A DNA stretch of 64,000 nt from assembly GCA_010015585.1 (NCBI GenBank), contig ML975158.1. One strand, 5' to 3'. This document shows positions 11,114-61,048 of this stretch, one piece after another. Below the pieces are notes generated by a model, which did no database searches, was not told where the DNA came from, and worked only from the letters and a program-made list of their open reading frames with translations. The translations under genes and the position numbers were made by a program. Within the stretch, counting starts at the first letter, position 1. Every line of letters begins with the position of its first letter. This stretch comes from Eremomyces bilateralis CBS 781.70 (lineage: Eukaryota).

Positions 11114-13356
11114 ATGTTGTTCAAGTTGATGCTGGCTTGGCTGGGTAGCATACTACTACTCGGCGCTGATGCAGCTATTAGCAATAAGGGGACAATTCTA
11201 GTGCTTGCCCGTGACCAAGGCAGTGCCAACTCGGCAACTCTAGGACTTCAAGGCTATGGAATTCCGTACCAAGTGGTACTCGTTCCCCAGACTGGTGTCG
11301 CTCTTCCTCAACTGAATAGCTCTGCTTCAGCTGGTAACTATGGTGGTATCCTTGTGGTGAGCGAAGTGAGCTATCAGTATAGCACTGGATTTACCAGTGC
11401 CTTGACAACCGCACAATGGCAGCAACTGTATGACTACCAGACCAATTATGGTGTCCGTATGGTCCGCATCGATGCATATCCTGGGCCGGATTTTGGTAAG
11501 CCATCCCATCTTTCAAGTCCAATCCAGCTTCCATGCCCAGAACATGCCCGTGCCCTTAGGAATAGAATGATACTTATCTCTAATCATTTGAAGCAATACT
11601 GACACATTGCTGAACAGGCACTACTACCGCCCTTCCTGGCGCTGGATGCTGTGATGCTGGAGTAGAACAACTCATATCATTCTCTGATCTCTCTGCCTTC
11701 CCTACCGCAAACCTCAAGAGTGGTGCGACTATGAGCACCCAGGGGCTGTGGCACTACCCTTCGACAATCACCAACTCTAGCATCGCAACGGAAATTGCCC
11801 GCTTTGCTCCTAGTGGTAGTTTTACCACAACGACCACAGCTGGTGAGCAGTCCACCATTCCATTATCAATATCATCAGTTAACACTCTCCTAGCTGTTAT
11901 TAACAAGATTGGAAATCGCCAGCAGATGGTCTTCTTCATTTCTTGGGCCTCTGATTGGGCTGTGGCATCCAACTTCCTGCAGCACGCATGGATTCACTGG
12001 ATGACCAGAGGTCTGTATGTCGGGTTCCGCAGAATCTACCTTGGGACTCAAGTGGATGACATGTTCTTGGAGAGCGACCTCTACCGTCCTGTTGGGGGTC
12101 TCTTCCGTCTCCGCGCTGGAGACATTGCCAACCATGTCACCTGGCAGACTCAGCTCAACAACAAGCTTCCTGCCGGCTCCAAATACTTCATGGAGATTGG
12201 TCATAACGGCAACGGAGATATCGAAGCGGCGGTCAATACCCCGGCCGGTGGCTCCATGTGCAACCCACCAGACGCGATCGAATATGACTCCCCACCAGAC
12301 ACGCCTTTGGAATTTCAGAAGCCGTTGGGCACTGGAACCAATATCTGGCCAACAACTCCAACAACATACCCGTGGTCATTGACTTGTGCTCGCCTTGATA
12401 CCCTTGAGAACTGGTTCCAGATCGCTAGCAACCGCGATGCCTTTGCCCATATGTCGCACACCTTCACTCACTACGAGTTGAATAACGCTACCTACTCGGA
12501 TGCTGCTAAGGAGATCCAGTTTAACAAAGCATGGATGCAGCAAATCGAACTATCATCCGGCAATAAGTTCAGCAGCAAGGGCCTTATCCCCCCAGCCATC
12601 ACTGGTTTGCACAATGGAGACGCCATCAAGGCATGGATGGACAATGGCATCACCTCCGTCGTCGGAGACAACACCCGCCCACCTCTACGACACGCCGTAA
12701 ACACTTTTTGGCCACGCCTAACCACCGTTGCTGACAATGGATACGCTGGGCTCTGGATCATCCCCCGTTGGGCGACCACAATATACTTCAACTGCGATTT
12801 ACCTGCTTGCACCCTTCAAGAGTGGATCGACACCTCCGGTGGCAGCGGTGGCTTCCAAAATCTAATCAATGATGCCCGCGCCACCAACACTCGTTATCTC
12901 CTCGGCCTTCGCCACGATCCCTACATGTTCCACCAGGCGAACTTGCGCCAGATCGACGTCCCCAACACGGACGTGAACGGCGTCTCCTCGAAGTTGTCCC
13001 TCATTCAAATTTGGGTTGAGGTGATCACACAGGAGTTGACCCGTCTGACCAGCTGGCCGGTTATCACCCTCAAGCATGATGACATCGCGACAGACTTCAT
13101 CAACCGCATGACTCGAGACAAGTGCAATCCGAACCTAATTTACAATTATTCCGCGGATGGTACCAAGATCGTGTCGGTGACGGTCAGTGCAAATGCAAAC
13201 AGCTGCGCTACTAAGATCCCGGTGACATTCCCTGGCAGTGTCATAAACACCAATGGCGGGATTTCGGAGCAGATTGGAAGCGACCCGTTGACTATTTGGA
13301 CTACTCTGAGTGGCTCGACCCAGACGTTTACTTTGACGACTCCGATCAAAGCCTAG
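11114..13356 (+). CDS. agd3: Secreted GAG deacetylase (CBM87 + CE18), about 689 aa
   Basis: Signal peptide MLFKLMLAWLGSILLLGADA. Inferred exons 11114-11495, 11618-11842 and 11894-13356. Deacetylase motifs TQVDD and SHTFTH, plus IGHNGNGD and YMFHQANL. Divergent from gtb3. Confidence 0.92.
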
Positions 13357-23061: not shown

Positions 23062-23641
23062 CGATTCTGGTGGACCCACGTCGGTGGTTCTCTGCACCTA
23101 GCGGTTGGGACGGTAGCACAAAATCTATTGCGGCGACAATTCAGTCGATCCGGGTCGAGGTTGGAGTTCAGCTGTTCAACGATGGTGCGATGAGAGGCTT
23201 TTGACTTGTTTCCCTCAGGTGCTAAATTTACCACATAAAGTTGCAACCCTAGTACCTCGTCAGCCCAATATACTTCATCGCTGTTCCCGTGATGTGCCAA
23301 GGAGTCCGCCAGTATTAGATGTGGGATAATATTTGGCAGGGATAACGCCCAACCGTTCATACCATTCCCCTATACGAACCCCACCACCACAAGGGAGACT
23401 GTTTGACTGAATTCCCGAAGGAGCCGGTATGGCCACCGGTGGTCTAGGCGGGTAAATCTAGACAAGTACTATGCCAGCCACTCCGATGCCCTGCTGCGGA
23501 ACATTTCTGGTTTCGTCGTGAGATCGAGAGACAAATTTTCCGCTTAAGTGACGTGACGTCTCGACCGTATTTAAGATATAATCCGAAGTAGCCTTCGACG
23601 GCTTTGTCGATCCCTCGTCGACTAACTCTCGCTTATCACTC

Positions 23642-24973
23642 ATGGAGTTCTGTCTGTCGTCCAGGGCTTTGAGCCCCTCACGCTCGTTTTCATCCTTATC
23701 TTTCACCAACAGCTCGTCCGAGTCCATTGGCACGCCAGATACGCAGCGATCGGTGCTGTTCGACGATTTGACAGAGGATTCTTTTGACCTAACCGTCGTT
23801 GAGAACCCATATATCCTAGTTGTTGGCGGACTCGGATACATCGGGAGCCACACGACCCTGGAATTGTTGAAGGCATCATACAATGTGGTCGTAATCGACG
23901 ATCTGAGCAACTCTTTCTCGGCCGTCCTGGACCGGGTCATCCTGTTGGCTTCCGAATATTGCAAGAGCGACAACAAGCCATTGCCCTCAGTAGACTTCCA
24001 TGAGGTCGACTATAAGGATTCCTCGGCCATCCGCGCCATTCTCAGCAAATACGACATCAGCGAGTCCATTAGCAAAAACTCGGTGGCGCCAAGAAGCTCC
24101 AGAATAGCGGGCGTAATCCACTTTGCCGCTTTCAAATCGGTCGAAGAGTCGATTGAAAAGCCACTTCCATATTACAGGAACAATGTTTGTGGCTTGGTCG
24201 ATTTTCTCGATGTTTTGCAAGAATTTGGGATCAAAAACTTCGTCTTCTCCTCATCTGCAACGGTGTATGGGTCCAAAGCCAATAGTGGCGTTCCACTGAG
24301 TGAAGAGCACATGGTGCATCATCCGGAATCGTACTTCGACTCTCGAGGAGACGTGCAATTCGCCGAGCCAGGTGTTTCGGGTATCACTTCGCCATACGGT
24401 CGGACCAAGTATATGTGCGAGGCCATCCTTGCCGACCTGGCACATTCCGACCCATCGTGGTCGATTACACTTTTGAGGTATTTCAATCCGGTCGGTTGCC
24501 ATGAATCCGGCCTTCTCGGAGAACACCCTCGACAGCGACCCACGAACCTGGTTCCTGTGGTAATCCGCGTCTTGACTGGACAACTGTCCGAGCTTAATGT
24601 CTACGGAACCGATTACGACACAGCCGATGGAACGGCTGTTCGCGACTTTATTCATGTGCAAGACCTTGCTTGCGGTCACATCGCTGCTCTTGATGCTGCT
24701 GCCAGAGGTACCATCAAAGGATTTCGAGCGTACAACCTCGGAACTGGCAGAGGGCACACAGTCCGTGAAGTCGTGATGAGCCTAGAAAAGGCATCAAACC
24801 AGGGAATTCCTGCCCGAGAAGTTGGTCGTCGGAAGGGTGATGTCGGGTTCTGTGTTGCTGCCGTCGACCGCGCGGAGACTGAACTGAACTGGAAAGCGGA
24901 GAAAACGCTCGAGGATTGTGCTCGGGACGTGTGGAGATACACAGAGCTCTCACAGGTGATGGAGTCGACATGA
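23642..24973 (+). CDS. uge3: UDP-glucose/UDP-GlcNAc 4-epimerase
   Basis: Intronless 443 aa ORF with GGLGYIGSH Rossmann motif, FSSSATVYG, YGRTK (YxxxK), LRYFNPVG and RDFIHV. Ser-rich N-terminal extension. Divergent from sph3. Confidence 0.93.
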   Translation: MEFCLSSRALSPSRSFSSLSFTNSSSESIGTPDTQRSVLFDDLTEDSFDLTVVENPYILVVGGLGYIGSHTTLELLKASYNVVVIDDLSNSFSAVLDRVILLASEYCKSDNKPLPSVDFHEVDYKDSSAIRAILSKYDISESISKNSVAPRSSRIAGVIHFAAFKSVEESIEKPLPYYRNNVCGLVDFLDVLQEFGIKNFVFSSSATVYGSKANSGVPLSEEHMVHHPESYFDSRGDVQFAEPGVSGITSPYGRTKYMCEAILADLAHSDPSWSITLLRYFNPVGCHESGLLGEHPRQRPTNLVPVVIRVLTGQLSELNVYGTDYDTADGTAVRDFIHVQDLACGHIAALDAAARGTIKGFRAYNLGTGRGHTVREVVMSLEKASNQGIPAREVGRRKGDVGFCVAAVDRAETELNWKAEKTLEDCARDVWRYTELSQVMEST

Positions 24974-28726: not shown

Positions 28727-30834
28727 ATGGCTACTCGTGCTCTAGAGCTGTGTGTTTTCTGCAGGAAGCAGGAGTTCTTTGATCAGCAATGCTCCCTAGC
28801 AGAAAAGCGAGCTGCAATCATTGCTCGTCCGGTCAAATCGACGAAGCTGGCTCCAAGTTTCAGGCATGCCCCTCTTCTTCTGCAACCGGCAAAAAGCAGG
28901 GAGAGTGAATTGTGTCCGCGTTGTTCGGATTACAATATCCTGTCGAAGTTTGAGGCCGCCGACACGCTCGATGAACTTGATCGGGATGAGTTTGTCCGCG
29001 GAACTCACCAAGCGCATGACCTTAGCTTGGCGGTCATAAAACATCAAAACGAAGAGATATGCACAATCTCAACCTTGGATCGCTGGAGTCGTTGCAGTTG
29101 TTCTCGTCTTGTCCGCTCTGTCGGCTGATGTACAATTCATTTCCGTTTTCTGAGTTCCCCGAGCTGATGGACGACCTTTCGAACATTTCTATATCGCTTA
29201 TTCCATTCAGAACTTACGAACGATTGGACGAGTCCTGGAATGTTCCGAAAGATGACACTCTAAAAGCGTCTTATGCAATCTCTTTTGCTGTTGTTCTCAG
29301 CGGTTCGTCATTCAAACGTCTGAATTCGAGCCGTTTTGTGTCTGCAAGCGAAGGTGCAAATGCCTCATCCGTCATTGCTTTAGACCAATCCAGCGCTTTC
29401 TCAAACAGGACATCCTTAACGGGAGGAAAAATCAGGGAGCAACTAGATGCGTCTTTCGTGAAGGGATGGATCGAGCGATGTCAGACTTCTCACGGATCGA
29501 ACTGCGAAGTATCATTTTCAGATGACCTTCTCCAAGAGCGGGTGATTCATGTACCAAGCATGCAAATTGTACCGTGTCCGAAAAACTGCCGATATGCCGC
29601 TCTTTCTTATGTGTGGGGTGCCTACAAGAACGTCCGGATTCAGAATCTTCCGAGGACTCTGAAAAATTCTATCGAACTGGCGAGCATACTTGAGATCGAG
29701 TACATGTGGATTGATGCACTATGTGTGGATCAAGCGCCGGCGCCACTGAAGACGATCCAATTACAAATGATGGACAAGATTTATCAGTCGGCATGGGTGG
29801 CCTTCATAGTTGTTACGGGAGAAGACTCGAACTCTGGTTTGCCTGGGGTTGATTTGCGTCGTTCTCGGGCTCCATCACATGAGGAATATATCCAAGGTCG
29901 GAAGATTATATCGTCGCCTCCAAAATTATCTCTCTATGTGCAGGACTGCCCTTGGAGCAAGCGGGCGTGGACCTTTCAAGAAGGGATTCTCTGGAAGCGG
30001 CGACTGTTCTTGACGCCATATGATGCCATATATTGGTGCAATTCAGCACAATATTTTGAGGCCATCGACGAGACCAACGATCCACTGCACTGCCTTGGGA
30101 CGCCGGGTGCACGAGCAGACATTCCAAACGAGCCATCCAGGTTCTCAACTGCGGAGCGGGTGTTCTGCGATGAATTGGCAGCGTATACATCGCGGGAGAT
30201 GTTGTTTGATGCGGACTCTCTGAACGCGTTCCTTGGAATGTTAGCATTCTACAAGAGGCATTTCAAATTTCGAGATTTTGTTTGGGGTCTCCCTTTGCTC
30301 GACTTGCCGCAATCGCTGCGCTGGTTTCACGATAAAACCGTGACACCGAGGAGGCGCGATAAGTTCCCTAGCTGGAGTTGGGCGGGCTGGGAAGGGCGAG
30401 TGCGTTATAGTGAGGATTGGGAAATTAAGCCAAATGACCGAAGAAACAGTGCTGCGTTTGACATGAGCGTCTTGTTCCAGAAAGTCGACGGGCAACTACT
30501 GACAATACAAGGCTTCACAGTCCGCCTCAAGATCCGGACTGATCCATTCAGCGATGCATACGTGCCGAACACCGACATACTGCTCGGCTCTGTCAGAAAA
30601 CGGAATATGCTGCATAGCAACACGATCCCGACTGGGGAATATGACCTCCTGGTAATTCAGAGGCTCCGTTACAGGAGGACGCCAAACAGTCCCGAGAAAC
30701 AGGAGATCTTCATGTTATTATTGGACTGGAAAGGTACAATCGGATATCGCCTTACCAAAGTCCGGTTGTTCCTTGATCCTGGGGTCGATTTCGCGACTGC
30801 GATGCCGCGTCATTCTAGCCTTACTCTGGGCTAG
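28727..30834 (+). CDS. HET-domain protein with a probable frameshift near 29000-29060
   Basis: ORF 29059-30834 has YAALSYVWG, LPRT, YMWIDALCVDQ, MDKIYQSA, WSKRAWTFQEG and FPSWSWAGW. Upstream ORF 28727-29128 supplies an LCPRC motif in a different frame. Confidence 0.8.
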
Positions 30835-36257: not shown

Positions 36258-39200
36258 TCAGGAAAGATCAAACCCAGCCCCCGAAAATGCAGCATACAGC
36301 ACCTTCTCCTTCATCGTCTGCTCGCTCGCATACCGCGGCAGCTTGAGCAGGTTCACGCACGTACTCGTGCTTGGCAGCCGATCCTGGTCATCGCCCGAGT
36401 CTCGGATGCTGAACCGGGGGTTCAAACTGCCGAAACCCAGCAACGGCGCGTTCGGTGTCGACGTCACGAATTTCAGCACCGCGCGTCGTTCGCCGTCGGA
36501 GAGGTCTTGCATGACTTTCCAAAAGAGCTCCACGGTCGGATGCTCCAGTCCATCATCGCCAATGACGTAGACGCCTCCGTATAAGGTATTGCGGCGGAGA
36601 TCAGAGATGTCAATCGAGGAACTGGTGCCTCCAAGAAGGGTTTGCAGTTCGGCTTGGTTGAACATGCCGAGCCAAGAGGGTTGAATGATGGTGCTGAGGC
36701 CGCGGAGGAAGGCATTGGTTTGTGGGCCTGGCTGGACTTGCAACCGATGTCGGGCGACGTAGGAGATATACTCCAATCTGTTCTGGTTGGTGACAGGAAT
36801 ATCGCTGCCACCGGGCTTGAGTTCGCGTTCGATGGCCTGGGCCTTGCCGGAGACAGAGATCTCATCCGTGATGGTAAAGTTGAGAGAAAATTCTTCGACG
36901 TTGCCTCGGTAATTTTTCAACTGTAGCAGGCCTTGGTAAAGGCTCTCATCCAGCTCACGCAGGTCGTTCAAGTTCGCACGATATCCAGACTCTTTAGGAG
37001 CCAAGCCCGATCCGCCTGTGAGAGCCCATTTGAGCAAAAAGAAACCAGCGAAGTTGACGTCGATGAGAATGCCCTCATACAAGCATTTGCCGATAATCCG
37101 TCCCAAGAACTCGTAATGTTGCAGGAGTTCTGAAATCTCTGCACGATAGTCCGAGGAGCCCTCCGGAACACCCATCGCTCTGAGGTGTGCCTTACGTTCT
37201 TCAAGGGATACTGGATTCGGGTGGAGGAGATGCTGGTCGTTCTCAATGAAGAGATGTGGACGCTCCTCGTTGCGGAATGCCTGACTGGTGACGCTGGTCA
37301 AGAACTCCTTCGTCACACCTCCACCATCGATGCCTGCCTCCACGCTCCCAAATTGGTCCACAAAGGTGATTTGGATCGGCTCTTTCAGGCCGTCTTTGAG
37401 CGGGTAAAATTGGTCGTACGCGTCTTCAAATTCGTGCTCGCGTCGGATCCTAGCGTGGTGTCGCTCTATTGTTTCATCCCGGAACATCCCATGCGTTACG
37501 GCCATTCGCCAGGATTCGGCATCCACATAGCCGTTCCGCCGCTTATGCTATGAATCGTTAAAAACGCCGCTGATCAATGGTTTACGGTTAACATACCTTG
37601 TCCAGAGTCACGAATTCCCGGAAAATCTGAACACGAGTCGTGAAGGGGGTGAAGAACGGCATATTTTGCAGGATCTCTAGTCGCGGCGTGACCGCTTGCA
37701 GGTATCTCCTCTTTGAAGCTTTCCGCTGCTGTCTCTTCAATCTTTCTTGCTGAATTGTCCGCTGTGTTCTGGCAGTGCCAATGAGATGATTGGCGTGTAT
37801 CTCATCATCACCAAATTGCAGGTCATCTTCGTCATCGCTTTCGATCTGGTGCCGGTTTTCCTCTTCCAAGACGACCGAGGAGATAAATCCGGACATATCG
37901 AACTTAGAGGTCATGAGCCAATGCCCTTTCTTGAGGAAGTTTCGCCGCGAATCCCGTTCGTACAGCATTCGCAACAGTGCCGTTACCAAGCCCCTGATAT
38001 GCTCGAGACTGAAGTCACTGATTCCACTAGCGGGTCGTTTACTCGATGGTCCCGTGCTTTTCGACGATGACGCGGGCGGTTGCGCAGAACCAATCCCAAA
38101 GAAAAGTCCGAGGTTCAGCTCATCTTCGTTGTGCTCGATAACATCTTCGATATCCTTGGCGTAAAAATTGAGAGCAAACCCCAAATTTTTGAGGAAAATC
38201 GTCAAGTCTCTGACTTCGTCCAACGCAAGTGCCATGTCGCGTCCGGGACCGGAAGACTTGTTACTCCACTTTGGTTCCGAATAGCCTGTGGAGAAGAATT
38301 CTTCATCATCCATGATCTTCAATACGAAGATGTAGAGCTCCATGAAGATCAGTATAACTCTCCATTCATCCGCAAGCCTCTGATCTATCTGTTCCTGGGA
38401 CTCGAACCGCGTGCTCTGCGATTTTAGTAGTGGAATTGCAGTCCGTGGTTCTTTCGATATCTGTTTAAAGATATGTGTGTGTTTTGTTGCGCTCCAGAAG
38501 TATTTGATCGCTGGCAAATCCCGCCTAGAGCCATCATCCGCGGCGATGGAGCCGGAACCAAGATATAGCCACATCCGGATCTCATCGGCTCGTTTGGGAA
38601 AGATACGGATGAGTGCTAAGGCGAACGCTGCAAATCTTCGCGCATTGGACGCAACGGTATCGGCGGCTGACTTAAATTTTGACCCGTCGAATGAGGCCGA
38701 CGTGTTCGACAGAAGGCCGCTTATGCTCTCCTGGTTAACCAAGGACAGCACCTGATCCCGGTAGAATTGGAATGAAATCTTCTCCTTAGCTGGACTTGGT
38801 GACTGGCTTCGATCCGTTTCATGTGCAAATCTCCTAAACTCCAGCAAGATAGGATGATCTGCAACGGATAATAATAGATTAGACACTACGGACACGAAGT
38901 CCTCGTTCGATGTGTATGCATGTGCATTGCGGAAGTCGTGCGTTTGGCGGTGGAAGTATATGAACAGAGAGAGGAGATTAAGTCTGCGATCAATGTCTGC
39001 GAGCTGGAGGTATCGTGTCCACCCGGAGACATCGACGGTCGATGAAAGCGCGCTCGCGAGCAATTTGTAATTTACGGAGCCTGACAATCGGTTCAGCCAG
39101 TCCCGCAACTGCGGATTTTCGGTCATTTTCGTCGAAGAGAGATACTCCAAGGCAAACGCCGCGTAGACTTCGAGAGTCTGGGCATTCATTTGGCGCAGAG

Positions 39201-46091: not shown

Positions 46092-46796
46092 TCAGTGAGG
46101 GTCTTTGAAGAAGATGACGCCTCCCTTAACTTCACTCAACGGGTTATTTTCTCCTTCCGTAATTTTGCACAGTTCGACATCGAATCCGCATTTGCGGTAG
46201 AATTGCTCGCTGCCGTCCGACGTGATGACACCGGCAGAGATCCCCTCATCTTGAGCCTTCTGCAGGCCCCATCGAACCAGCTCCCTTCCATAGCCTTTCC
46301 CGTGCCCATCAGGATGCACACCGAGTGTGCTCAGCTTCCATCCATCGCTTCGGACGCCCACCAAATGTCGCGTGAAAAACGGCGCAGCGCGGCTAGATGC
46401 ATCCAGTCGATCCGGGACTGCTGCTCGGTTTGGCCACATCCATTCTTCTATGCGATTCCACACCTTCACCAGCGGCGCAACCAACCGTCGAGGATCCCAC
46501 CACGAGAGTCCCAATCCCAAACCCATCTTGAGTCCTAATGCGCTTGGACGACCAACCCGTCCCCATTCCGCCGCGCCGGTGATTCGACCGTCCTGATCGA
46601 CGGAGACGATGAGGCAGTTTCGGTAGTCCCAGAATGCAGCGCGGACTTTCCGGCGCCAGTAGTGGAGAACCGAGTCGGGGTATTGCTCGCGATAGGGATG
46701 CACGAAGCGGCCGCTGTAATCTTCGTCCCAGAACGCCGCGGTGAAGATGTGGGATATGGCGTCGAGGTCCCGGTGTGTTGCGTATCGGATGGGCAT
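46092..46796 (-). CDS. GNAT-family N-acetyltransferase
   Basis: MPIRYATHRD start, acetyl-CoA motif A LGVHPDGHGKGYGRELV, and FYRKCGF. Confidence 0.88.
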   Translation of the reverse strand: MPIRYATHRDLDAISHIFTAAFWDEDYSGRFVHPYREQYPDSVLHYWRRKVRAAFWDYRNCLIVSVDQDGRITGAAEWGRVGRPSALGLKMGLGLGLSWWDPRRLVAPLVKVWNRIEEWMWPNRAAVPDRLDASSRAAPFFTRHLVGVRSDGWKLSTLGVHPDGHGKGYGRELVRWGLQKAQDEGISAGVITSDGSEQFYRKCGFDVELCKITEGENNPLSEVKGGVIFFKDPH

Positions 46797-47882
46797 GATG
46801 AAGAATGACTTGGAAAGCGACAAGGCGTAAAAATGGACCGAGGAAATCCGAATTTCTCAGCACCAAGCCAGAGATCCAGGAGAAGAAATGGTTGAGATAG
46901 ACTTAAAACGCAGAATTCAACGATCGGACTCGACTTCGCCTATCTTATTGACTCTGACTCAACCTTAAGAGCTTTATGCTAGGTAAGGTAAAGGTACCTT
47001 ATGTTGCATTGAGCTGTGGGGTTTTAAGAATACGTGCAGGAAATCATCTCACGTTTGGTGGCACCTGATCGTATCACCCATTGAAACATGGGAACTCTAT
47101 TCCCAGTTCCCACGATACATAAACGCATTTCCCGGGAAGTTATTTCGCATTCTGTACGGAGTACGGAGGTCCATTTCAAAAGTTATTGCTCGCCAAGAAG
47201 GGGCTTGATTATATAAGCCGTTCGAAAGCCTATAGCACGGGCAGTAGGGTGTCTAGCCAACGGGCGGGTACTACGCGCGGTAAATCGAATGCCTGGCGCC
47301 CTTGCCTCGAATTAGGCTCTATAAGATCTAAAATAAATGCCCAGTTGATAGGCAGTCCAGTGCCCGTAGCATAGGCTCTCGAAACTGCTTATATAATCAC
47401 GCCACTTCCTTGGCGAGCAATAACTTTTGAAATAGACCTCCGTACGGAGTACGGAATACCAATGTATGGAATACGCACCATGCAGATCGAAAGTCGATGA
47501 TTCGTTCGTTGTGAAAGGAGAAGATCGAGGGAGTATCAGACCCTCGGTGTATATAAGGTGGCTGGTGTAATCAGCAATGTCACTGAATCATGCCAGCTCC
47601 CGACTCCTATGTAGTCTGGTTGCTTGTTTGGTTCCGGTGGTTGGTGCCCCGCATTGGAGACAAGGAGCTGCCGGGAGGGGATCCGGACTAGTCCGCTTTC
47701 AACCCCGACTTCAGAACGCGCCTCGTCGTCATATCATGGTCGCAATATCGCCATGTTTCGCTCCACTCAGCTTCTTTCTCCCAATCATTTTACCATCGCT
47801 GTGGAACATCCGAATAATTTATCTTCTAGGAATCTATCGTTCAAGCCATGCGCGCGGTTTTCGCGCCCTGGCCTTGTGGGTG

Positions 47883-50244
47883 ATGGAAACGGCACGGCGG
47901 AATCGCGACCAGTGTTGCTGTGGCATTGATACATGTCCGTACATTCTACATTCCAACCAGCGTCTCGAGGACCTCGAGCGCGACCTTTTGACGGCTGCGG
48001 AACTTGGGCAGGTGAATACTCACTTTCATTGCCTTGTGAATAATGCGCTGTCACTTTTGCGCCAGCGTGGCTGCCTTTCCATTGAACCTGATATTGCCGG
48101 TTGTTGCCTTGACGATGACTTCTTTGCTGACTTGGTCGCTGCAGGATCTCTTGATCCGGCATGAGGCGTATGTAGCCGATACTGAACAAGAACGTCGCCA
48201 AATGTCCGCGAAAATCGAGCAGATGGAGCGACAGAAGGCGGAGCTGGAAGCGCAAAACGCTCGAACCATCGACGAGAACCGTACCCTGTTGGACCAGCTG
48301 GAAGACCTCAATGGGGCGACGCTCGACTCCGATTCAACGATCCAATCCCTCACCGGCGCTCTCGAATCAACCCAAGAGGAACTTCGTCGCGTATCGATTC
48401 TTGCGTCGCGGGCGGAGACCTTGGAGCGGCAGCTTTCGCATCTGGAGAAGGACCAGGCGCAAATCCAAGGGACCTTGGTGACCACCGCGACGGAGGAACG
48501 GACGGCGATCCAGCGATGGCGGAACGCAGAGAAGACCATATCGCTTCTTCAAGATCAAATCGAGCAGATCGAGAAAGAAGCGCGAGAGGAGCGGGAGAGG
48601 CATGCAGAAGTTATTTCACGTACGGAGGGACGTATTGCCGTTGAGAGCGCTTTGGACACCACGGTTCGGAAAGTCAGAGGCACAGCGGCAGCGAAAGGCA
48701 CCGAGACAGGGGAGAACAGGATCGTGTCCAACTTCGTGCGCGATATTCTCCAGGACAATGCCAATCTCCAGGTTGGAATCGTGGAGTTACGCGATATGCT
48801 CACCAATTCCAATGAAGAGGTGGAGCGATTACGAGAACAGTTCATCGCACACCAACCCGTCGAAATCGATACAATCTCATCTCCCACCCTTGAGAGGGAG
48901 CTTGGGGATCACGAACCGGTTGGTCCACGAGAGGTCCACGTACACCATCACTACCATGCCGCGCCGGAAGCAAGTCCCAGGCTGAAAGTTCCTGTTCAAC
49001 GACGCGGAAAGAAAAGGCGCTCTCTCGGACAAGAAGGACAACATTCCGCACGATCGTCCATATCGCGCATTGCTCCTATCGCGCCAACGTCTACCACGGC
49101 AATCCTCTCGCAAACTTCAGTCACGATCCCCCATCAGCGTCCACCGAGATGGTCCCTTCAATCTACAGCCGGCGTTTCCATCGCATCCTCTCTGCCCAGC
49201 TCGCCTTACGCCCATTCTCGGCGGACATCGTCTGTGTTCGACCGCGTCTTCAGCGATGTGCCGATGGACTCTTCGCGCCCTACGAGCCCGGAGAGCAATG
49301 CGGCGGGCTCACCACTGCTAACCTCAATCGATGACAGCAATTGGCAGAGACCCCTTGGTGTGATTCGATCTATGGAGACCCTTAACACAGGCGATGAACC
49401 CGGCATGTCCACTCCGACGAAGGCGCGCCCAAGTCAAGAGATCACGGCAGCATCGCCCGTAGCCGGGCACTTCGCGCCGGACGCAAGCGCCTTGTCTCCT
49501 CGATCATTCAGCGCATTCCCACCGGAAATGACCATCTTCGAAGAAGGCTCCGAAACCACCCCTCAACCCACCAACTCCGATTCTGCCGACATCTTCGCCC
49601 CCCGTCTCCGCCGTGCCGCTTCCCATGACTCCATTCTTTCCCTCGCTCTCGATTCCGACTCCCTACAACCCACGCGAGGCCGACCAACCCACCAACCCTC
49701 CCTCTTCCCCAGCCACTCCCCCAATACCCCGACTTTCTATTCCACGCCCACAATCGCCACCCCCTCGTCCGCCATCCCCTCCCGCCCCATCTTCACCGCC
49801 GCCACCACCCTCCGCACCAGCCTCTCCCGCAGCGACCTCACGAGCAGCTCCCTCACCCGCTCCCTTCTCCGCGCCACCTCCCCGCACCCCTCCATCCCCT
49901 CCGCGCCCAACCTCTCCCCCACCCGCCGCTCTATCAGCACCACCCGCAAACTCGGCGGCTGGGTCTGGGGCAACTGGGGCGTCGCCCCCACCCCCTCGAT
50001 GATCTCCACGCATCCGGTGGACCGGGGCGTCCCGTCACAGCAGCCGTCGTCGCAGAGCGGGGGATCCGGCTCGCTGAAAGAGAGAAAGCCGAGACCGCGC
50101 CTGCCGGGGGTGAATCAGGCGGGATGGATTCTGGGATTTCAGCCGGAGCCGCCGGTGGCGTTTAACGTGGAGCCGGAGCGGGTGGATTCGGAGGCGTTGG
50201 GGGAGGCGTTAGGGGGGGCGGCGGAAGGGACGAGGCGGATGTAG
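47883..50244 (+). CDS. Uncharacterised ~742 aa protein: Cys-rich N-terminus, long coiled coil, Ser/Pro-rich tail
   Basis: Inferred exons 47883-48011 and 48145-50244 (GT donor, CTGAC branch point, CAG acceptor, phase 0). CCCGxxxC motif, AAELG motif, about 240 aa of heptad-like E/Q/R/L-rich sequence, C-terminal GWVWGNWG and PGVNQ motifs. Confidence 0.8.
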
Positions 50245-50976
50245 CGAGGTGGTTAGGTTGTTGCGACGCTGTGGCATCCACGCGCACTAGGCGCATCTCC
50301 TTTGTCTTTGGGGGATTGGGGGGGCTTTAGTTAGGGGTTCTTTCGCACGGAAAGGGGCGTCGTGATACCCAAATACCCATTTCCTATGTCCGGGGGTTGG
50401 AGTCCGTGGGAGGACTGGATCGCATCAGGCATATTTACATAGGGTTTAGGGTTAGAGGGTCATTCAATCGTTACAGACAAATTTAATCAAGTAGATTGTG
50501 CACTGTGCCCAATCCGTCTAGAACGAGCATCGCAAGCTTGAAATAGGCATCTGATGAATAACGCTCTTGATATGATGACAAGGAGTGTGGCTGAGTCAGT
50601 ACTAAGAAATATTCCACGTGACGCGCACGCGTCCTCGCCCACGCTACACCCGCCCTTGTCTGGTGGTTCCGCCCAAATTACGATTGTGGCTGAGCGGGTC
50701 TGGGGTGGATTCCGGTTGGCGACAAGTCGGAAGTAAACCTCCGTCCACTTGCTGACGTCGGAGGGCCACGAATTGCGACCCTTCAAGTGACATGTATCGC
50801 CATAACCCACAATTTCCCTTTCGCTTTCTTCCTTCCACTGTCCCTTTCCTCTTCTCCTCCTCGACACCGGATTTCGATCTTCCTCGAAGCCTTATCGCCA
50901 TACGTTTCCCCATCCCGTCGCACAAACGACTGCCTTGAGCCTCCACACGTATCCGACCGCATAGTCGAAGGCCGAT

Positions 50977-53900
50977 ATGGTAGGATCCCGAGTGGATTGA
51001 AGATGCAACTCGTTCGCCACGATCTGACCCTCGATAGGCTGTGACGAAGCGGGCAGGCCGCAAGAAAGATGCCGCCAATGCGAAGCAATCTGCGGGCGCG
51101 GGCCGCGGTGGCTCCAAAGGCATCCAGAAAGCCGCGTTCGAAATCGCGAAGAAGAAGGAGGTCGGCGTCTCCGACTTGACGCTGATCAGCAAGATCTCCA
51201 ACGAAGCCATCAACGACAACCTGAAGAAGCGGTTCGAGAATGCGGAGATCTATACGTATATCGGCCATGTGCTGGTGTCGGTGAACCCGTTCCGCGACTT
51301 GGGCATTTACACAGACCAGGTATTGGATAGCTACAAGGGGAAGAACCGGCTGGAGATGCCGCCGCATGTGTATGCCATCGCGGAAGCGTCGTATTACAAC
51401 ATGAACGCGTACAAAGAGAACCAATGCATCATTATCTCGGGGGAGTCAGGTGCAGGGAAGACGGAGGCGGCGAAGCGGATCATCCAGTACATCGCGAACG
51501 TTTCCGGCGGTAGCAACGGCTCCATTCAGGAGATCAAGGACATGGTCCTCGCGACGAATCCATTACTAGAGTCCTTCGGCAACGCCAAGACACTGCGGAA
51601 CAACAACTCGTCGCGGTTCGGGAAGTATCTGGAAATCCAGTTCAACGCGCAGGGGGAGCCGGTGGGCGCGAACATCAACAACTACCTCCTCGAAAAATCC
51701 CGCGTGGTGGGTCAAATCGCGAACGAGCGGAACTTCCACATCTTCTACCAGTTCACCAAATCGGCGTCGAACAACTACCGCGAGATCTTTGGGGTGCAGC
51801 AACCCCAGTCATACGATTACACGAGCCGATCAAAGTGTTACGATGTCGACGGAATTGATGACCATGCCGAATTCAAGGACACGTTAAATGCGATGAAGGT
51901 TATTGGCATGTCGCAAGAAGAGCAGGACAATGTTTTCCGGATGTTGACTTGCATCCTGTGGATCGGTAACATCACGTTCGGCGAAGATGAGCAGGGCGAT
52001 GCGAAGATCAAAGACCGATCAGTGATTGACTTCGTCGCATACCTATTGGAAGTCGATGCGGCACACGTCGACAAAGCATTGACCGAGAGAGTGATAGAAA
52101 CCAATCGCGGTGGGCGACGAGGGTCCGTCTACGATGTCCCACTCAACATCCCCCAAGCGCATTCTGTGCGCGACGCCCTTGCCAAAGCGATCTACACCAA
52201 CATGTTCGACTGGATCGTCCAGCGCGTCAACGCGTCGCTGAAAGCCCGCGGCGCCATCGCCTATTCGATCGGCATCCTCGACATCTACGGATTCGAGATC
52301 TTCGAGAAAAACAGCTTCGAGCAACTGTGCATCAACTACGTGAACGAGAAACTGCAGCAGATCTTCATCCAGCTGACGCTCAAGACCGAGCAAGAGGAGT
52401 ACGAGCGGGAGCAGATTAAGTGGACGCCGATCAAATATTTCGACAATAAGGTTGTCTGTGACTTGATCGAGGAAAAACGGCCTCCGGGTGTCTTCGCTGC
52501 GCTAAACGATGCATGCGCTACTGCTCATGCGGATCCAGGCGCGGCAGACCAGACATTCGTCCAGAGGATGAACATGCTGTCTTCGAATCAACATTTCCAG
52601 CCCCGACAAGGCCACTTTATCATCAAGCACTACGCTGGCGATGTCTCCTATGCCGTCGAGGGTATGACCGACAAGAACAAGGACCAGCTCCTTAAGGATC
52701 TTCTCAACCTCGTAGCTCAAAGCGGGAATAATTTCTTGCACACTCTATTCCCGCACGAAGTCGATCAAGATAACAGGCGTCGACCCCCGACAGCCGGTGA
52801 TAAGATCAAGGCGTCGGCGAATGATCTGGTTGCAACGCTCATGAAATGCTCTCCTTCTTATATTCGAACGATCAAACCCAACGAGAACAAGTCTGCGTCC
52901 GAGTACAATTCCGGTAATGTTCTTCACCAGATCAAATACCTCGGTCTCCAAGAGAACGTGCGGATTCGACGCTCCGGTTTCGCCTATCGACAAACGTTCG
53001 AGAAATTCGTCGAGCGGTTCTACTTGCTGTCACCGAAGACTTCGTACGCTGGCGAATATACCTGGACGGAAGATTACCCATCTGGGGCGCGTCAGATTTT
53101 GAAGGATACGAACATTCCAAACGAAGAGTACCAAATGGGCGTCACGAAGGCTTTCATCAAGACTCCGGAGACGCTGTTCGCGCTTGAAACGATGCGAGAT
53201 CGATACTGGCATAACATGGCCATCCGGATCCAGCGAGCGTGGAGGAACTACCTGCGGTACCGTACCGAGTGTGCCATTCGAATCCAGCGGTTCTGGAGAA
53301 GAATCAATGGAGGGAAGGAGTACATCCAGGTACGAGACTACGGGCACCAGGTGCTTGCTGGACGGAAAGAACGACGTCGTTTCAGTCTATTGGGCTACCG
53401 CCGGTTCATGGGAGATTACCTTGGTCTTGCTAATAAGGGTGGGCCCGGAGAAATGATTCGCGGCGCCATTGGGGTCAGCCCAGGCGAGCCGGTGCTGTTC
53501 TCCTGCCGTGCGGAACTGCTGGTCTCCAAGCTCGGTCGATCGAGTAAGCCCGAGCCTCGGATGCTGGTCCTCACCGGAAAGACCATCTACATCGTGAAGC
53601 AAGTCATGGCCAACAACCAAGTGCAGATCTTGGCGGAACGAACTATCTCGATTGGGGCCCTTCGATTTATCAGCGCGACGAATCTCAAGGATGACTGGTT
53701 CTCGATCGGGGCCGGATCTCCGCAGGAACCAGATCCTTTGGTCCGATGCGTTTTCAAGACCGAGTTCTTCACGCACTTGGCCAGGGCGCTCCGGGGGATG
53801 GATCTAAAGATAGGGCCACAGTAAGCAGTCGACTAGGGCTTGAGACCGTATTGCTGACTTCGTATAGAATCGAGTACAACAAAAAGCCGGGGAAGCCTGC

Positions 53901-58080: not shown

Positions 58081-61048
58081 ATGGTCACGGCCAACACGCA
58101 CCTCTTTGCTGTCGTACCGGACGGAAACATGGCCGGAAAGAAAGTGTATTCGGCGCCAAGGGCTGACCAGCAAGCCAGAGAACTTGCGTCCAAGCTGACA
58201 CTGGAAGAACAGGCAAGTGTTGCACCTCTATACCCACTTGGCATGGAACGAAAGTCCTAGCATATCGATATCGTTTTCTATGATGACCTTCTGGTGTCTT
58301 CCTGTGCGTTTCAATGCACTTCAATATTCCTTTTCCGTGATACACTCAAACAGTTGTTGGGTCATCTAAAAACAGAGACAGCTATTGTTCCGATGCAGTG
58401 TTTCTTGGTAGAGGGTCACGTGAAGAGTGCCACTAACAGTGCTATTAGATATCTCTTCTTGCTGGAGCAGACTTCTGGAGGACAGTAAAGATACCAGGAA
58501 AGGGGATACCCTCGATCAAGACGACCGATGGTCCAAGTGGAGCCAGGGGCGAGTTCTTCAAGAACGGCACCAAGGTATGGGTCAGATTGTTCAAAATCCA
58601 TGATGGTCATTGTGCTCACATTTTCAGGCTGCCTTCTTTCCATGCGGGATATCCCTCGCTGCGACATGGAACCGAGATCTTATTGAGAAGGTCGGGGAGC
58701 ATCTCGGCGAGGAAACCAAAGCTCGTGGAGCGCAAGTGTTGCTCGCACCAACAGTATGCATGCATCGATCGCCGCTAGGCGGGAGGAACTTTGAATCCTT
58801 CTCCGAAGATCCATTTCTTACCGGCAAGCTTGCTGCGTCGTACATTCGCGGCGTGCAGAGCAAGGGGGTCGCAGCGACCATCAAGCATTTCGTTGCTAAC
58901 GAACAGGAGACGCTGCGGATGACCATTGACATTCTCGTGGCAGAAAGACCGTTACGTGAGATTTACCTCAAGCCATTTGAAATTGCTATTCGAGAGTGTT
59001 CACCCTGGGCGTTGATGAGTTCGTACAATCTGATCAATGGGATTCATGCGGACATGAATGAGCAGACCTTGACTCATATATTGAGAGAGGAGTGGGGATA
59101 TGACGGGTAAGTTAAGGAGTGCAGCTTTAGCAGCGCAGATGGATAACAGTCTTGGCAGCCTAGTCATGTCTGATTGGACTGGTACTAACTCCGTGGCCCA
59201 AGCCATCAGCGCAGGCTGCGATCTGGAGATGCCTGGTCCAGCCAAGTGGCGTGGCGAGCGTGCCATCAAGGCTGTCGAGGAGGGTGAGCTCTCAAAAGAG
59301 GCTGTCGAAAAAGCAGCGGGCAACGTTTTACGCTTAATCGATCGCACCCTCGGCCTCCGGGACGTCCCAGAGCCTCCGGAGAAATCCAATGACAACCCAG
59401 AGCTACGCGACCTGATTCGCGACGCTGGCATCCAAGGTTTGACATTGCTAAAGAATGAAAATGCATTGCTTCCAATCCGGTCGGCGAAAAAGGTTGCTGT
59501 CATTGGTCCCAATGCCCACCGCGCCATCGCCGGTGGTGGAGGAAGCGCCAGCTTGAATCCATATTACCTTACTTCACCACTGGACGGGATACAGAGTGTC
59601 TTCAAAGGAGAGGTTGTCTACGCACAAGGATGTGACACTGCGAAATGGCTGCCTTTAGCTTCCGATTTCTGTGAAACACCAGATGGGCGCAAAGGCGTCC
59701 TGCTGGAGTATTACCATGGCGATCGATTCAAAGGCGATCCAGGGGTGATTGAACACAAGAGCTCGACCGATCTCTGGCTTTGGGACTCGGCGCCGAAATC
59801 CGTTCTGCCAGTGTACTCATTCAAAGTGAAAGCCATCCTCACCCCCAAGACGACCGGAAATCACACATTTGGCTTTTCCTCCGTCGGGCCTGGACGGCTG
59901 TTCCTGGACGGTAAACTCTTTGTCGACAACTGGAACTGGACCGAAGAAGGCGAGGCGATGTTTGAAGCCTCTCAAGACGTCGCTAAGTCTATCTTCCTTG
60001 AAGCCGGCAAGGCGGTCACCATCCTCGTCGAAAGCACAAACGAGGTGCGTCCGGCCAGTAAACAATCACTCGGCCCCTCACACGGGTATGGCGGTTGTCG
60101 TATTGGTTACGAGGAAGAGTCGAAGGAAGATCTACTCGCAGCTGCTGTCGATGCGGCAAAGAATGCCGATGTGGCGGTCGTCGTCGTCGGACTCGATGGA
60201 GAATGGGAGTCAGAAGGCTACGACAGGCAGACTATGGACTTACCCAAGGATGGCAGCCAGGATCGTCTAGTCGAAGCGATCTACGCGGCCAATCCGCAAA
60301 CTGTGGTGGTGAACCAGTCCGGTACACCCGTGACGATGCCATGGGCAGACAGCGTCCCTACCATTCTCCAGGCCTGGTACCAAGGCCAGGAAGCCGGCAA
60401 TGCGCTTGCAGAGGTGCTGTTCGGATTACAGAGCCCCAGTGGTAAACTGCCAACGACGTTCCCACGACGACTGAAGGATAACCCGGCCTACCATAATTGG
60501 CCTGGCGAGAACGCGAAGGTGCTGTATGGTGAGGGGATCTATATCGGATATCGCCACTACGAGCGGTCCCATGTCGAACCGCTGTTCCCATTCGGCCACG
60601 GTCTCTCATACACGACATTCGCATATGGCGAGCCACGGATCTCGAATAACGTCCTCAACGAGAACCAAGTCATCGAGGTGTCGGTACCGGTCACCAACGC
60701 CGGGTCTTTCACCGCGTATGAGACGGTGCAAGGCTACATCAAGGACGTCAGATCCCGACTTCCACGACCCGAGAAGGAGCTACAGTCATTCGAGAAAGTC
60801 CTTCTGAACCCAGGAGAGACCAAGGTGGTCAAATTGCGGTTTGATAAGTATTCCGTGGGGTACTACGATACCAGCCTCGAGGCCTGGATCGCAGAGGAGG
60901 GTGAGTTTCAGGTTCTGGTCGGTGCGAGCTCGGCGGATATTCGGTACGTTTCTTGTCCTTTATCGTGCTTCCATTGTGACTAACGTTTGGTCTTCGTAGG
61001 GGTTCCATCTCATTCGCTGTTGTGGAATCGTTCACTTGGGTATTTTAG
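58081..61048 (+). CDS. GH3 beta-glucosidase with PA14-like insert and FnIII domain; no signal peptide, so probably intracellular
   Basis: Motifs LTLEEQ-ISLLAGADFW, TDGPSGARG, GGRNFESFSEDP, IKHFVANE, VMSDW (nucleophile), ESEGYDR and PFGHGLSYT. Inferred exons 58081 (or 58129)-58212, 58449-58574, 58628-59106, 59159-60943 and 61000-61048. Confidence 0.93.

Follow-up and report, generated by a model that had tools for sequence, protein, structure and literature searches.

The window analysed here, a stretch of 64,000 nucleotides (nt) from Eremomyces bilateralis CBS 781.70 (GenBank assembly GCA_010015585.1, contig ML975158.1), carries on its + strand, at 47883-50244, a two-exon gene whose joined product of 742 aa resembles the animal dynein adaptors BICDR1 and TRAK2 at its N-terminus and the yeast protein Vac17 at its C-terminus. 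An AAxxG motif of the CC1-box kind is split by the intron and conserved in orthologues, and a long coiled coil is predicted to follow it. From the sequence, we judge the case to be evenly balanced that the protein is a CC1-box-type dynein-dynactin activating adaptor, perhaps for Vac8-bearing vacuoles. The initial annotation of this DNA had already proposed a CC1-box adaptor-like protein; the computational checks that were run support this reading, in which binding to the dynein light intermediate chain (LIC), to dynactin and to cargo is predicted. What appears to be new is a fungal family that looks like CC1-box adaptors, has a Vac17-type tail and carries two invariant Cys and His motifs. A literature search, which had most subscription journals outside its range, found no fungal CC1-box adaptor, no description of this family and no link between Vac17 and dynein.

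The accessible part of the literature on filamentous fungi describes a single cargo adaptor of dynein, namely the Hook complex of early endosomes, and other organelles are said to hitchhike on endosomes. The present family, which is found in Aspergillus, Penicillium, Sordaria and Podospora, is a concrete candidate for how vacuoles or non-endosomal cargo might engage dynein. If this is true, the BICDR/TRAK-type adaptor module is not confined to animals, and the LIC-binding module of BICDR, TRAK and HAP1 would be older than the split between fungi and animals.

Gene structure and conservation of the split motif

The gene model comes from direct reading and translation of positions 47400-50700. 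Its parts, together with the motif halves and the coverage by a public run (X1), are these:

47883..48011, + strand: exon 1, 43 codons, ATG at 47883; product METARRNRDQCCCGIDTCPYILHSNQRLEDLERDLLTAAELGQ
48012..48144, + strand: intron of 133 nt, GT..AG, phase 0 (GTGAAT...gCTGACt...CAG); position conserved family-wide
48145..50244, + strand: exon 2, 699 codons plus TAG (50242-50244); product begins DLLIRHEAYVADTEQERR
47973..48011, + strand: first half of the CC1-box-like motif, LERDLLTAAELGQ, with AAELG at 47994-48008
48145..48165, + strand: second half of the CC1-box-like motif, DLLIRHE; LLxRHE in the family, invariant in alignments A1 and A2
47500..50511, + strand: covered by two X1 contigs; the first extends about 102 nt past 47500, the second ends at 50511 and is followed by adaptor letters

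The exon 1 product terminates in ...LEDLERDLLTAAELGQ at 48011, and across the junction the spliced protein reads LERDLLTAAELGQ|DLLIRHE, residues 31-50 being LERDLLTAAELGQDLLIRHE. These residue numbers had been given correctly by the initial annotation, which set the beginning of the motif at 47976, one codon late; the correct position is 47973. Its proposal that the motif is split by the intron, and that the intron is spliced in this way, has been borne out. A 2421-nt contig of run X1, the kind of which can only be guessed to be RNA, aligns with 47500-48007 and 48141-49951, the 133 nt between them being skipped, and the joint 48007|48141 is equivalent to 48011|48145 with GT..AG ends. We take this joint as evidence for the splice and claim nothing from it about expression. 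Orthologues with a full N-terminus read ...AAQLGQ|ALLVRHE and align without a gap at the junction. The splice is accepted as real because these two lines of evidence, the contig joint and the gapless junction of the orthologues, are independent of each other.

The leader (47398-47882) is at least 485 nt long and contains 10 upstream ATGs, two of which (47577 and 47736) are in frame and have no stop between them and the gene. Extensions predicted from these two are unlike the N-termini of orthologues. We placed the start at 47883 because orthologues begin 10-15 residues ahead of a cluster of Cys residues that lies close to the N-terminus; this is a choice by homology rather than a proven start, and the motif is unaffected by it. 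The gene call for the locus in the database (P0003, 680 aa) begins with MSAKIEQ inside exon 2 and thus lacks the motif. This call, the 10 ATGs of the leader and the guessed nature of run X1 could be taken to mean that the model is wrong, exon 1 being foreign to the gene and the motif an artefact of joining. We consider this highly improbable, as the contig joins the exons exactly at GT..AG, the same joined motif is present in 117 orthologue models and the order exon-intron-exon is identical in models that retain the intron.

The family is large. The exon 2 product finds 1223 clusters at E up to 1e-3, with the best relative 44% identical, and a Penicillium member finds 1294 clusters. A profile search of 1.84 billion representatives gave 895 matches at E ≤ 1e-3, 505 at E ≤ 1e-10 and 299 at E ≤ 1e-30; the best 150 of the 895 are all close family, with E below 1e-141. 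Among the relatives listed, the family is one that spans Pezizomycotina, to judge by similarity. Its members come from Dothideomycetes, lichen-forming classes and Geoglossomycetes, from Eurotiomycetes (Penicillium, Aspergillus niger ANI_1_72104, A. fumigatus, A. clavatus ACLA_065400 and Fonsecaea) and from Sordariomycetes (Sordaria macrospora SMAC_05854, Podospora, Xylaria, Grosmannia, Niveomyces and Zalerion). Nearly all are named 'hypothetical' or 'uncharacterized', and the others bear labels that are generic or out of place, 'NUDE domain-containing' for P0026 among them. The NudE/Nde1 identity suggested by this last label was rejected: no NUDE family is present in the Pfam lists (for NUDE_C, the full lists at threshold and 25 of 118 families in one list were covered), and the Protein Atlas score of 0.79 for NUDE is a lead at most. 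Two members are unusually long and might be fusions or merged models: in P0242 the family part occupies 673-1402 of 1402 aa, and in P0249 it occupies 17-757 of 1255 aa.

CC1-box adaptors (BICD, BICDL, Spindly, TRAK, HAP1 and CDR2) are recognised by AAxxG inside the first coiled coil, in surroundings like E-K/R-x-x-x-A-A-x-x-G-x-x-L-L, and the spliced window protein agrees with this. Conservation of AAxxG in orthologues had been set as a check by the initial annotation, and the motif is indeed kept in 117 intact, correctly spliced orthologue models. Among 236 relatives from the searches with exon 2 and with the Penicillium member, 88 have the whole AAxxGxxLLxRHE, 143 have LLxRHE without AAxxG and 5 begin farther downstream. 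The 143 models start in, or read through, the conserved phase-0 intron between ..LGQ and ALLxRHE, a systematic annotation artefact: 114 of them have at most 30 residues upstream, mostly with a terminal ..LTFALQ that stems from translation of the intron's 3' end, eight can be seen to have AAxLGQ followed by intron text, and P0114 shows AGRLG. Another 138 proteins, which are representatives first met in the profile search of 1.84 billion together with cluster members, include 29 with AAxxG and three with AGxxG (P0243, P0254 and P0354); the rest are fragments or have no exon 1. The motif is therefore missing from most database records because the conserved intron splits it, and its being hidden in this way probably explains why the family escaped notice.

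Family alignments were made with 34, 41 and 65 members, the last being diverse representatives. Invariant or nearly invariant columns at the N-terminus are CCCGxxxC and LExLExDV..AAxLGQALLxRHE.Y, followed by a long heptad region, and those of the second helix (CC1b) are VVSHFVKDILQDNANLQxGIxELREML..SNEEV..LREQ..HQP. Further downstream come LxxEL, HxHHHYH, RRxKKKR, SSRPTSPES and LRRxxSHESLxS, and at the C-terminus GGWVxGxWG, PGVNQxGPIxGF and DxEALxExL.

Likeness to CC1-box adaptors and to Vac17

Profiles of the N-terminal 100-110 residues were compared with 177,635 distinct PDB sequences. A profile of seven sequences had BICDR1 chains as its top four matches (E 4.2e-5, 26.6 bits) and TRAK2 as the fifth (E 0.12). 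When more diverse sequences were added, giving a profile of 14 sequences from four fungal classes, BICDR1 was again on top at E 8.5e-7 (32.4 bits), a 50-fold better value, with TRAK2 at E 0.027 and the first unrelated match at E 0.056. The five best of all PDB sequences are thus CC1-box adaptors, aligned on the box itself. Profile positions 22-77 match BICDR1 105-160, so that family lLeslekdvqtaaklGqaLLarhe stands against BICDR1 105-VIRQKEKDLVLAARLGKALLERNQ, and the family AA and G fall on A116, A117 and G120, which are named as the AAXXG residues of BICDR1 (10.1101/2022.03.17.482250; for this and all other sources cited here, statements refer to their accessible part). A comparison of the N-terminus with adaptors had been suggested by the initial annotation, and the outcome here, with BICDR1 as top match aligned on the CC1 box, agrees with the proposal made there. 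Full-length Pfam scans return mostly generic coiled-coil families, while the N- and C-terminal segments alone give consistent results. In the Protein Atlas the N-terminal part belongs to an unnamed cluster of its own with 1501 members, and the scores for BICDL2, HAP1_N and CDR2-like (0.76-0.77) and for NUDE (0.79) are all in the chance range.

Downstream of the motif, the following elements are predicted:

48166..48678, + strand: rest of the long first coiled coil (CC1a), corresponding to helix 23-225 of orthologue P0004 (AlphaFold2 and dimer model)
48679-48717, + strand: Gly/Ala-rich break after CC1a
48721..48858, + strand: CC1b helix, IVSNFVRDILQDNANLQVGIVELRDML..EEVERLREQ..HQP, where conservation within the family is highest
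48886..48903, + strand: TLEREL, Spindly-like JxxE-phi motif (LEREL at 48889-48903), in the loop after the coiled coil

An AlphaFold2 model of P0004, made with the family alignment, has a mean predicted local distance difference test (pLDDT) value of 54.5. It shows a helix at 23-225 with pLDDT mostly above 90, a break at 226-241 and a second helix at 242-285, which is in line with the coiled coil of about 240 aa expected by the initial annotation. The remainder, apart from short helices at 651-661 and 771-779, is mostly below pLDDT 50, consistent with the disordered Ser/Pro tail that had been described there.

Modelling of residues 12-310 in two copies gave a dimer with parallel chains in register, which scored 0.49 in three of three runs, against 0.00 for the best of three controls; at least 75% of contacts are shared between runs, and the pLDDT of the partner is at least 77. 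Among proteins solved as homodimers, 21 of 30 reach the mark applied here, and among those solved as single chains none of 23; in eukaryotes it is reached by 17 of 29, but by only one of seven eukaryotic cases without an older solved relative; the family alignment was not used in the run. The pass for the coiled coil may thus reflect likeness to solved structures. Self-contacts in the dimer model fall on positions 53, 56, 60, 64, 67, 71, 74, 78 and 81, a register in which A42 of the family would occupy d and G46 would occupy a. The same register is occupied by BICD2 A43 (d) and G47 (a), whose small size creates the LIC pocket (PMC7655957), and the family has Leu or another hydrophobic residue at the position of BICD2 Y46. 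A parallel dimeric coiled coil of about 200-300 residues after the LIC site, by which adaptors are recognised, is present in the models.

The LxxEL motif is found in a loop, 14 residues past the end of helix 242-285 in the P0004 model. In 72 of the 88 intact models it follows the first Ala at a distance of 246-265 residues (median 258); in the window protein the distance is 254 residues, close to the 250 aa or so at which the initial annotation had located TLEREL (48886-48903). In alignments A1 and A2 the L and the E are invariant and the following L is conserved in at least 90%; in the 65 diverse representatives the first L is invariant, and the E and the following L reach at least 90%. Spindly motifs are located either where CC2 begins or in loops that follow the break terminating CC1, and their consensus L-phi-x-E-phi has been updated to JxxE-phi, with LLSEL (BICD2 336-340), LAAEI (FIP3) and IETEL (NIN) as examples (10.64898/2026.04.25.720804). 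TLEREL fits the updated consensus. The initial annotation had called this match weak; the motif is nearly invariant, agrees with the updated consensus and is placed in the loop after the coiled coil.

The other end of the protein leads to a different known family:

49603..50241, + strand: Vac17-like C-terminal region, from LRRAASHDSILS (49606-49641) to the C-terminus

Pfam Vac17 (PF17321, gathering cut-off 25.8 bits) matches all eight C-terminal segments of about 200 residues at E ≤ 10 and is essentially the sole family matched. The E-values are 1.5e-7, 4.2e-5, 1.4e-4, 4.9e-4, 0.0042 (the window protein), 0.011 and 0.28, the eighth being at most 10; one tally puts seven of the eight at E ≤ 0.011. 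The best match, P0016 with 31.4 bits, extends from RRxxSHESLLS as far as the C-terminal helix, on positions 266-435 of the 441 in the profile, and full-length P0114 scores 28.7 bits, likewise above the cut-off. For the exon 2 product of the window, the match has E 0.0025 and places residues 462-567 on profile positions 244-333. No match covers positions before about 244, so the Myo2-binding part of Vac17 is unmatched, and Vac17 is not among 25 of the 28 families listed for the N-terminal segments. A C-terminal profile had no match in the PDB, and a Protein Atlas search with the tail gave no usable one. The initial annotation had seen the tail as Trp-rich: GGWVWGNWG does lie within 49951-49980, but the last 200 or so residues as a whole are Vac17-like and not merely rich in Trp.

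The Vac8 site of yeast Vac17 was reportedly mapped by Tang et al. in 2003, to residues 290-355. The Myo2-binding site is given, in the accessible part of the literature, as residues 97-170 or 112-157. In yeast Vac17, coiled coils are combined with a PEST region, and the C-terminus holds the site that binds Vac8, by which the protein is placed on the vacuole (PMC2173761). Because the fungal tail is Vac17-like and the C-terminus of yeast Vac17 binds Vac8, the tail is plausibly a Vac8-binding module.

Proposed function and alternatives

If the protein is an activating adaptor, it would dimerise via a parallel coiled coil of about 245 residues, near the start of which E-R/K-D-x-x-x-A-A-x-L-G-Q-x-L-L-x-R, with small Ala and Gly residues at core positions d and a, would provide a pocket into which the LIC of dynein could insert its C-terminal helix. 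The coiled coil would lie along the dynactin filament, with LxxEL in the loop behind it binding p25 at the pointed end of dynactin. A regulatory role would fall to the disordered middle, which is rich in Ser and Pro, and the last 200 or so residues, like the Vac8-binding C-terminus of Vac17, would bind cargo, most likely Vac8 on vacuoles. We infer the binding to LIC, p25 and Vac8 and the activation of motility from these resemblances. The fuller story, that the protein couples Vac8-bearing vacuoles to dynein, is tentative.

It is also possible, though doubtful, that the family represents the ancestral form of Vac17, a Vac8-binding vacuole adaptor working on dynein-dynactin in filamentous ascomycetes, and with it the first CC1-box activating adaptor outside animals. 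Budding yeasts, with their actin-based transport, would in this case have kept the Vac8-binding tail and swapped the dynein-activating N-terminus for a myosin V site, and the Cys cluster and HxHHHYH might together be a metal- or acyl-dependent switch that is new among adaptors. If this is true, yeast's best-studied myosin V receptor would be linked to a dynein adaptor, and motors would have been swapped on a conserved cargo receptor.

A number of observations weigh against the adaptor interpretation. Four members carry AGxxG in place of AAxxG. HAP1_N (PF04849), which the initial annotation had proposed as a profile for the N-terminus, does match five of seven N-terminal segments, but weakly (best E 1.2e-3) and everywhere below its gathering score of 33.9 bits, the one printed score being 11.2 bits; among full-length proteins, just one of 34 and one of 65 show it, and the match in P0108 covers the CC1b helix and not the CC1 box. 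A profile of the full-length family finds no adaptor in the PDB, just two matches at chance level. Chains of BICD2, Spindly and HAP1 are absent from the 27 PDB matches of the 7-sequence profile and the 43 of the 14-sequence profile at E ≤ 10, and because of this absence the likeness is specifically to the BICDR/TRAK branch. Position 2 of LxxEL is polar, a misfit to the classical L-phi-x-E-phi. Vac17 is found on full-length proteins in only 3 of 34 and 2 of 65, and the scores of the window itself, 17.5 bits for exon 2 and 16.8 bits for the tail, are below the cut-off of 25.8. Known adaptors have nothing that corresponds to the invariant Cys cluster or to the His motif. Finally, HBS1, which adaptors carry about 30 residues past the CC1 box as QxxH/Y together with an acidic patch, is not conserved in its QxxH: BICDR1 Q150-E-K-H153 aligns with family positions 76-79, which read [KQEH]-x-K-x. 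A conserved acidic stretch, LLDQLE, lies about 55 residues after the AA. Atypical HBS1 sites occur in NIN and HOOK3 (10.64898/2026.04.25.720804), and for this reason the variable HBS1 does not exclude adaptor function.

It may be asked whether a motor is involved at all. The protein could be a coiled-coil scaffold with, for example, a nuclear or signalling role, in which the resemblance to a CC1 box came about by convergence of a short motif and by coiled-coil composition. The match to BICDR1 is confined to some 55 coiled-coil residues, HBS1 is not kept, the basic cluster RRxKKKR could serve as a nuclear localisation signal, Pfam matches are sub-threshold only and the Atlas values for BICDL2, HAP1_N and CDR2 (0.76-0.77) do not leave the chance range. 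We nevertheless see such a scaffold as unlikely, since the E-value gained 50-fold with more diverse sequences, CC1-box adaptors, aligned on the box, take the first five places among the PDB sequences, the AA/G register equals the d and a positions of BICD2 and a second adaptor motif stands at the expected distance and structural place. Rather unlikely, too, is a plain Pezizomycotina orthologue of Vac17, that is, a receptor linking Vac8 to myosin V with AAxxG serving coiled-coil assembly or another partner. The Vac17 match in eight of eight tails, with two above the Pfam cut-off, and the resemblance to yeast Vac17 in overall layout (coiled coil first, then a middle rich in Ser and Pro, then a conserved tail) speak for it; the matches, on the other hand, are limited to profile positions of about 244-435 of 441 and never include the Myo2-binding part, the families listed for the N-terminal segments (25 of 28) do not include Vac17, and the N-terminus matches BICDR1 and TRAK2, the former at E 8.5e-7.

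A further possibility is a scaffold for several motors, on which cargo moves in both directions. Similarity to the TRAK/BICDR branch of CC1-box adaptors would fit it, as would the binding of kinesin-1 by TRAK1 within CC1b (10.64898/2026.04.25.720804), the CC1b helix (48721-48858) being the most conserved part of the family and having no assigned partner. The proposal is, however, one by analogy, and the sequence gives no sign of a kinesin- or myosin-binding motif; we regard it as improbable. An activating adaptor for dynein-dynactin, with a tail that might bind Vac8, thus remains the reading that we prefer.

Other motifs, neighbouring genes and known systems

Several short conserved motifs lie outside the elements described above:

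47913..47936, + strand: Cys cluster CCCGIDTC; CCCGxxxC in the family, invariant in all 14 N-terminal segments (A6)
48934..48957, + strand: His-rich motif VHVHHHYH; HxHHHYH in the family, nearly invariant, just after LxxEL
49000..49020, + strand: basic cluster RRGKKRR; RRxKKKR in the family
49270..49296, + strand: SSRPTSPES, conserved Ser/Thr-Pro motif in the disordered middle
49951..49980, + strand: LGGWVWGNWG, Trp/Gly motif; in A1 and A2 the two W, and in GxWG the last G, are invariant
50104..50139, + strand: PGVNQAGWILGF; PGVNQxGPIxGF in the family
50182..50217, + strand: short C-terminal helix VDSEALGEALGG; DxEALxExL in the family

The Cys residues of one chain are in contact with those of the other in the dimer model. 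Possible roles of CCCGxxxC and HxHHHYH are a metal site, acylation or redox switching, and SSRPTSPES is a putative phospho-regulatory site. Five Sordariomycete members (P0326, P0306, P0320, P0305 and P0319) have K(L/W)(V/A/T)(S/G)WRPWG in place of GGWVxGKWG, retaining only the two Trp and the final Gly, and their PGVNQ motif reads PGINQPG.

Upstream of the gene, at 47144-47462, there is a palindromic element in which a centre of 160 nt is surrounded by inverted arms, those of 54 nt being 87% and those of 26 nt 88% complementary. It resembles a miniature inverted-repeat transposable element or a hairpin and is located in the promoter or leader; the X1 contig seems to enter it, to about 47398. 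The next gene downstream, at 51038-53824 (+), encodes a class I myosin (Myosin_head E 6e-246, Myosin_TH1 E 1e-45), and we take its adjacency to the adaptor candidate as a coincidence. Elsewhere in the window, a group 1 glycosyltransferase domain is encoded at 3-1265 (-), Agd3 deacetylase domains at 11614-13356 (+; E 8e-185) and an NAD-dependent epimerase domain at 23582-24973 (+); the three open reading frames together look like what we take to be a galactosaminogalactan-type exopolysaccharide cluster. The open reading frame of 2077 aa at 1437-7670 (-) has no Pfam match at E ≤ 1e-5. Also present are a HET-domain protein at 29026-30834 (+), the C-terminus of a HECT ubiquitin ligase at 36258-37547 (-), a GNAT acetyltransferase at 46092-46856 (-) and a GH3 beta-glucosidase with a PA14 insert at 59085-60983 (+).

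Among the systems known from animals, BICDR1/BICDL1 (PDB 6F1T, 6F1U, 6ZNM and 7Z8F) is the best sequence match, with the family AA/G on A116/A117/G120, and both proteins have an N-terminal CC1 box, a long dimeric coiled coil (modelled in the fungal family) and a Spindly-type motif afterwards. The similarity is, however, undetectable beyond about 55 residues, the QEKH (HBS1) of BICDR1 is unconserved in the family, and the fungal proteins add CCCGxxxC before the box and HxHHHYH after LxxEL. The cargo tails differ as well: that of BICDR1 binds Rab6, whereas the fungal one is unrelated to it and Vac17-like. TRAK1/2 (Milton) is close in another respect, since TRAK2 RDRDLELAARIGQALLKRNH, the fifth PDB match, aligns with family LEkDVqtAAqLGQALLvRHE. 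TRAK and HAP1 are organelle adaptors with a CC1 box, HBS1 and a Spindly motif, and HAP1_N is the Pfam family seen in five of the seven fungal N-terminal segments. In contrast, Pfam scans of the fungal family give no match to the Milton or kinesin-binding domain, and CC1a, very short in TRAK1 (10.64898/2026.04.25.720804), is predicted to be a continuous helix of 200 residues here.

HookA/Hok1 has, according to the accessible part of the literature, the same job that we propose for the family, that of a coiled-coil adaptor between organelles and dynein-dynactin in hyphae. The LIC-binding element proposed for the family is a CC1 box and not a Hook domain; no Hook family is present in the full Pfam lists, nor among the families listed in two others (25 of 118 and 25 of 28).

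As for Vac17, no homologue was found in higher eukaryotes, as reported in the accessible text of PMC2173761, or in Cryptococcus neoformans, as reported in that of PMC12258714. Compared with the Vac17 of budding yeast, a myosin V receptor specific to the vacuole, the fungal proteins are about 300 residues longer, their N-terminal third is dynein-adaptor-like and the Myo2-binding part is left unmatched. What the two have in common is the tail, in which the order is kept from the RRxxSHESxLS motif to the DxxALxExL helix (profile positions of about 265-435 of 441).

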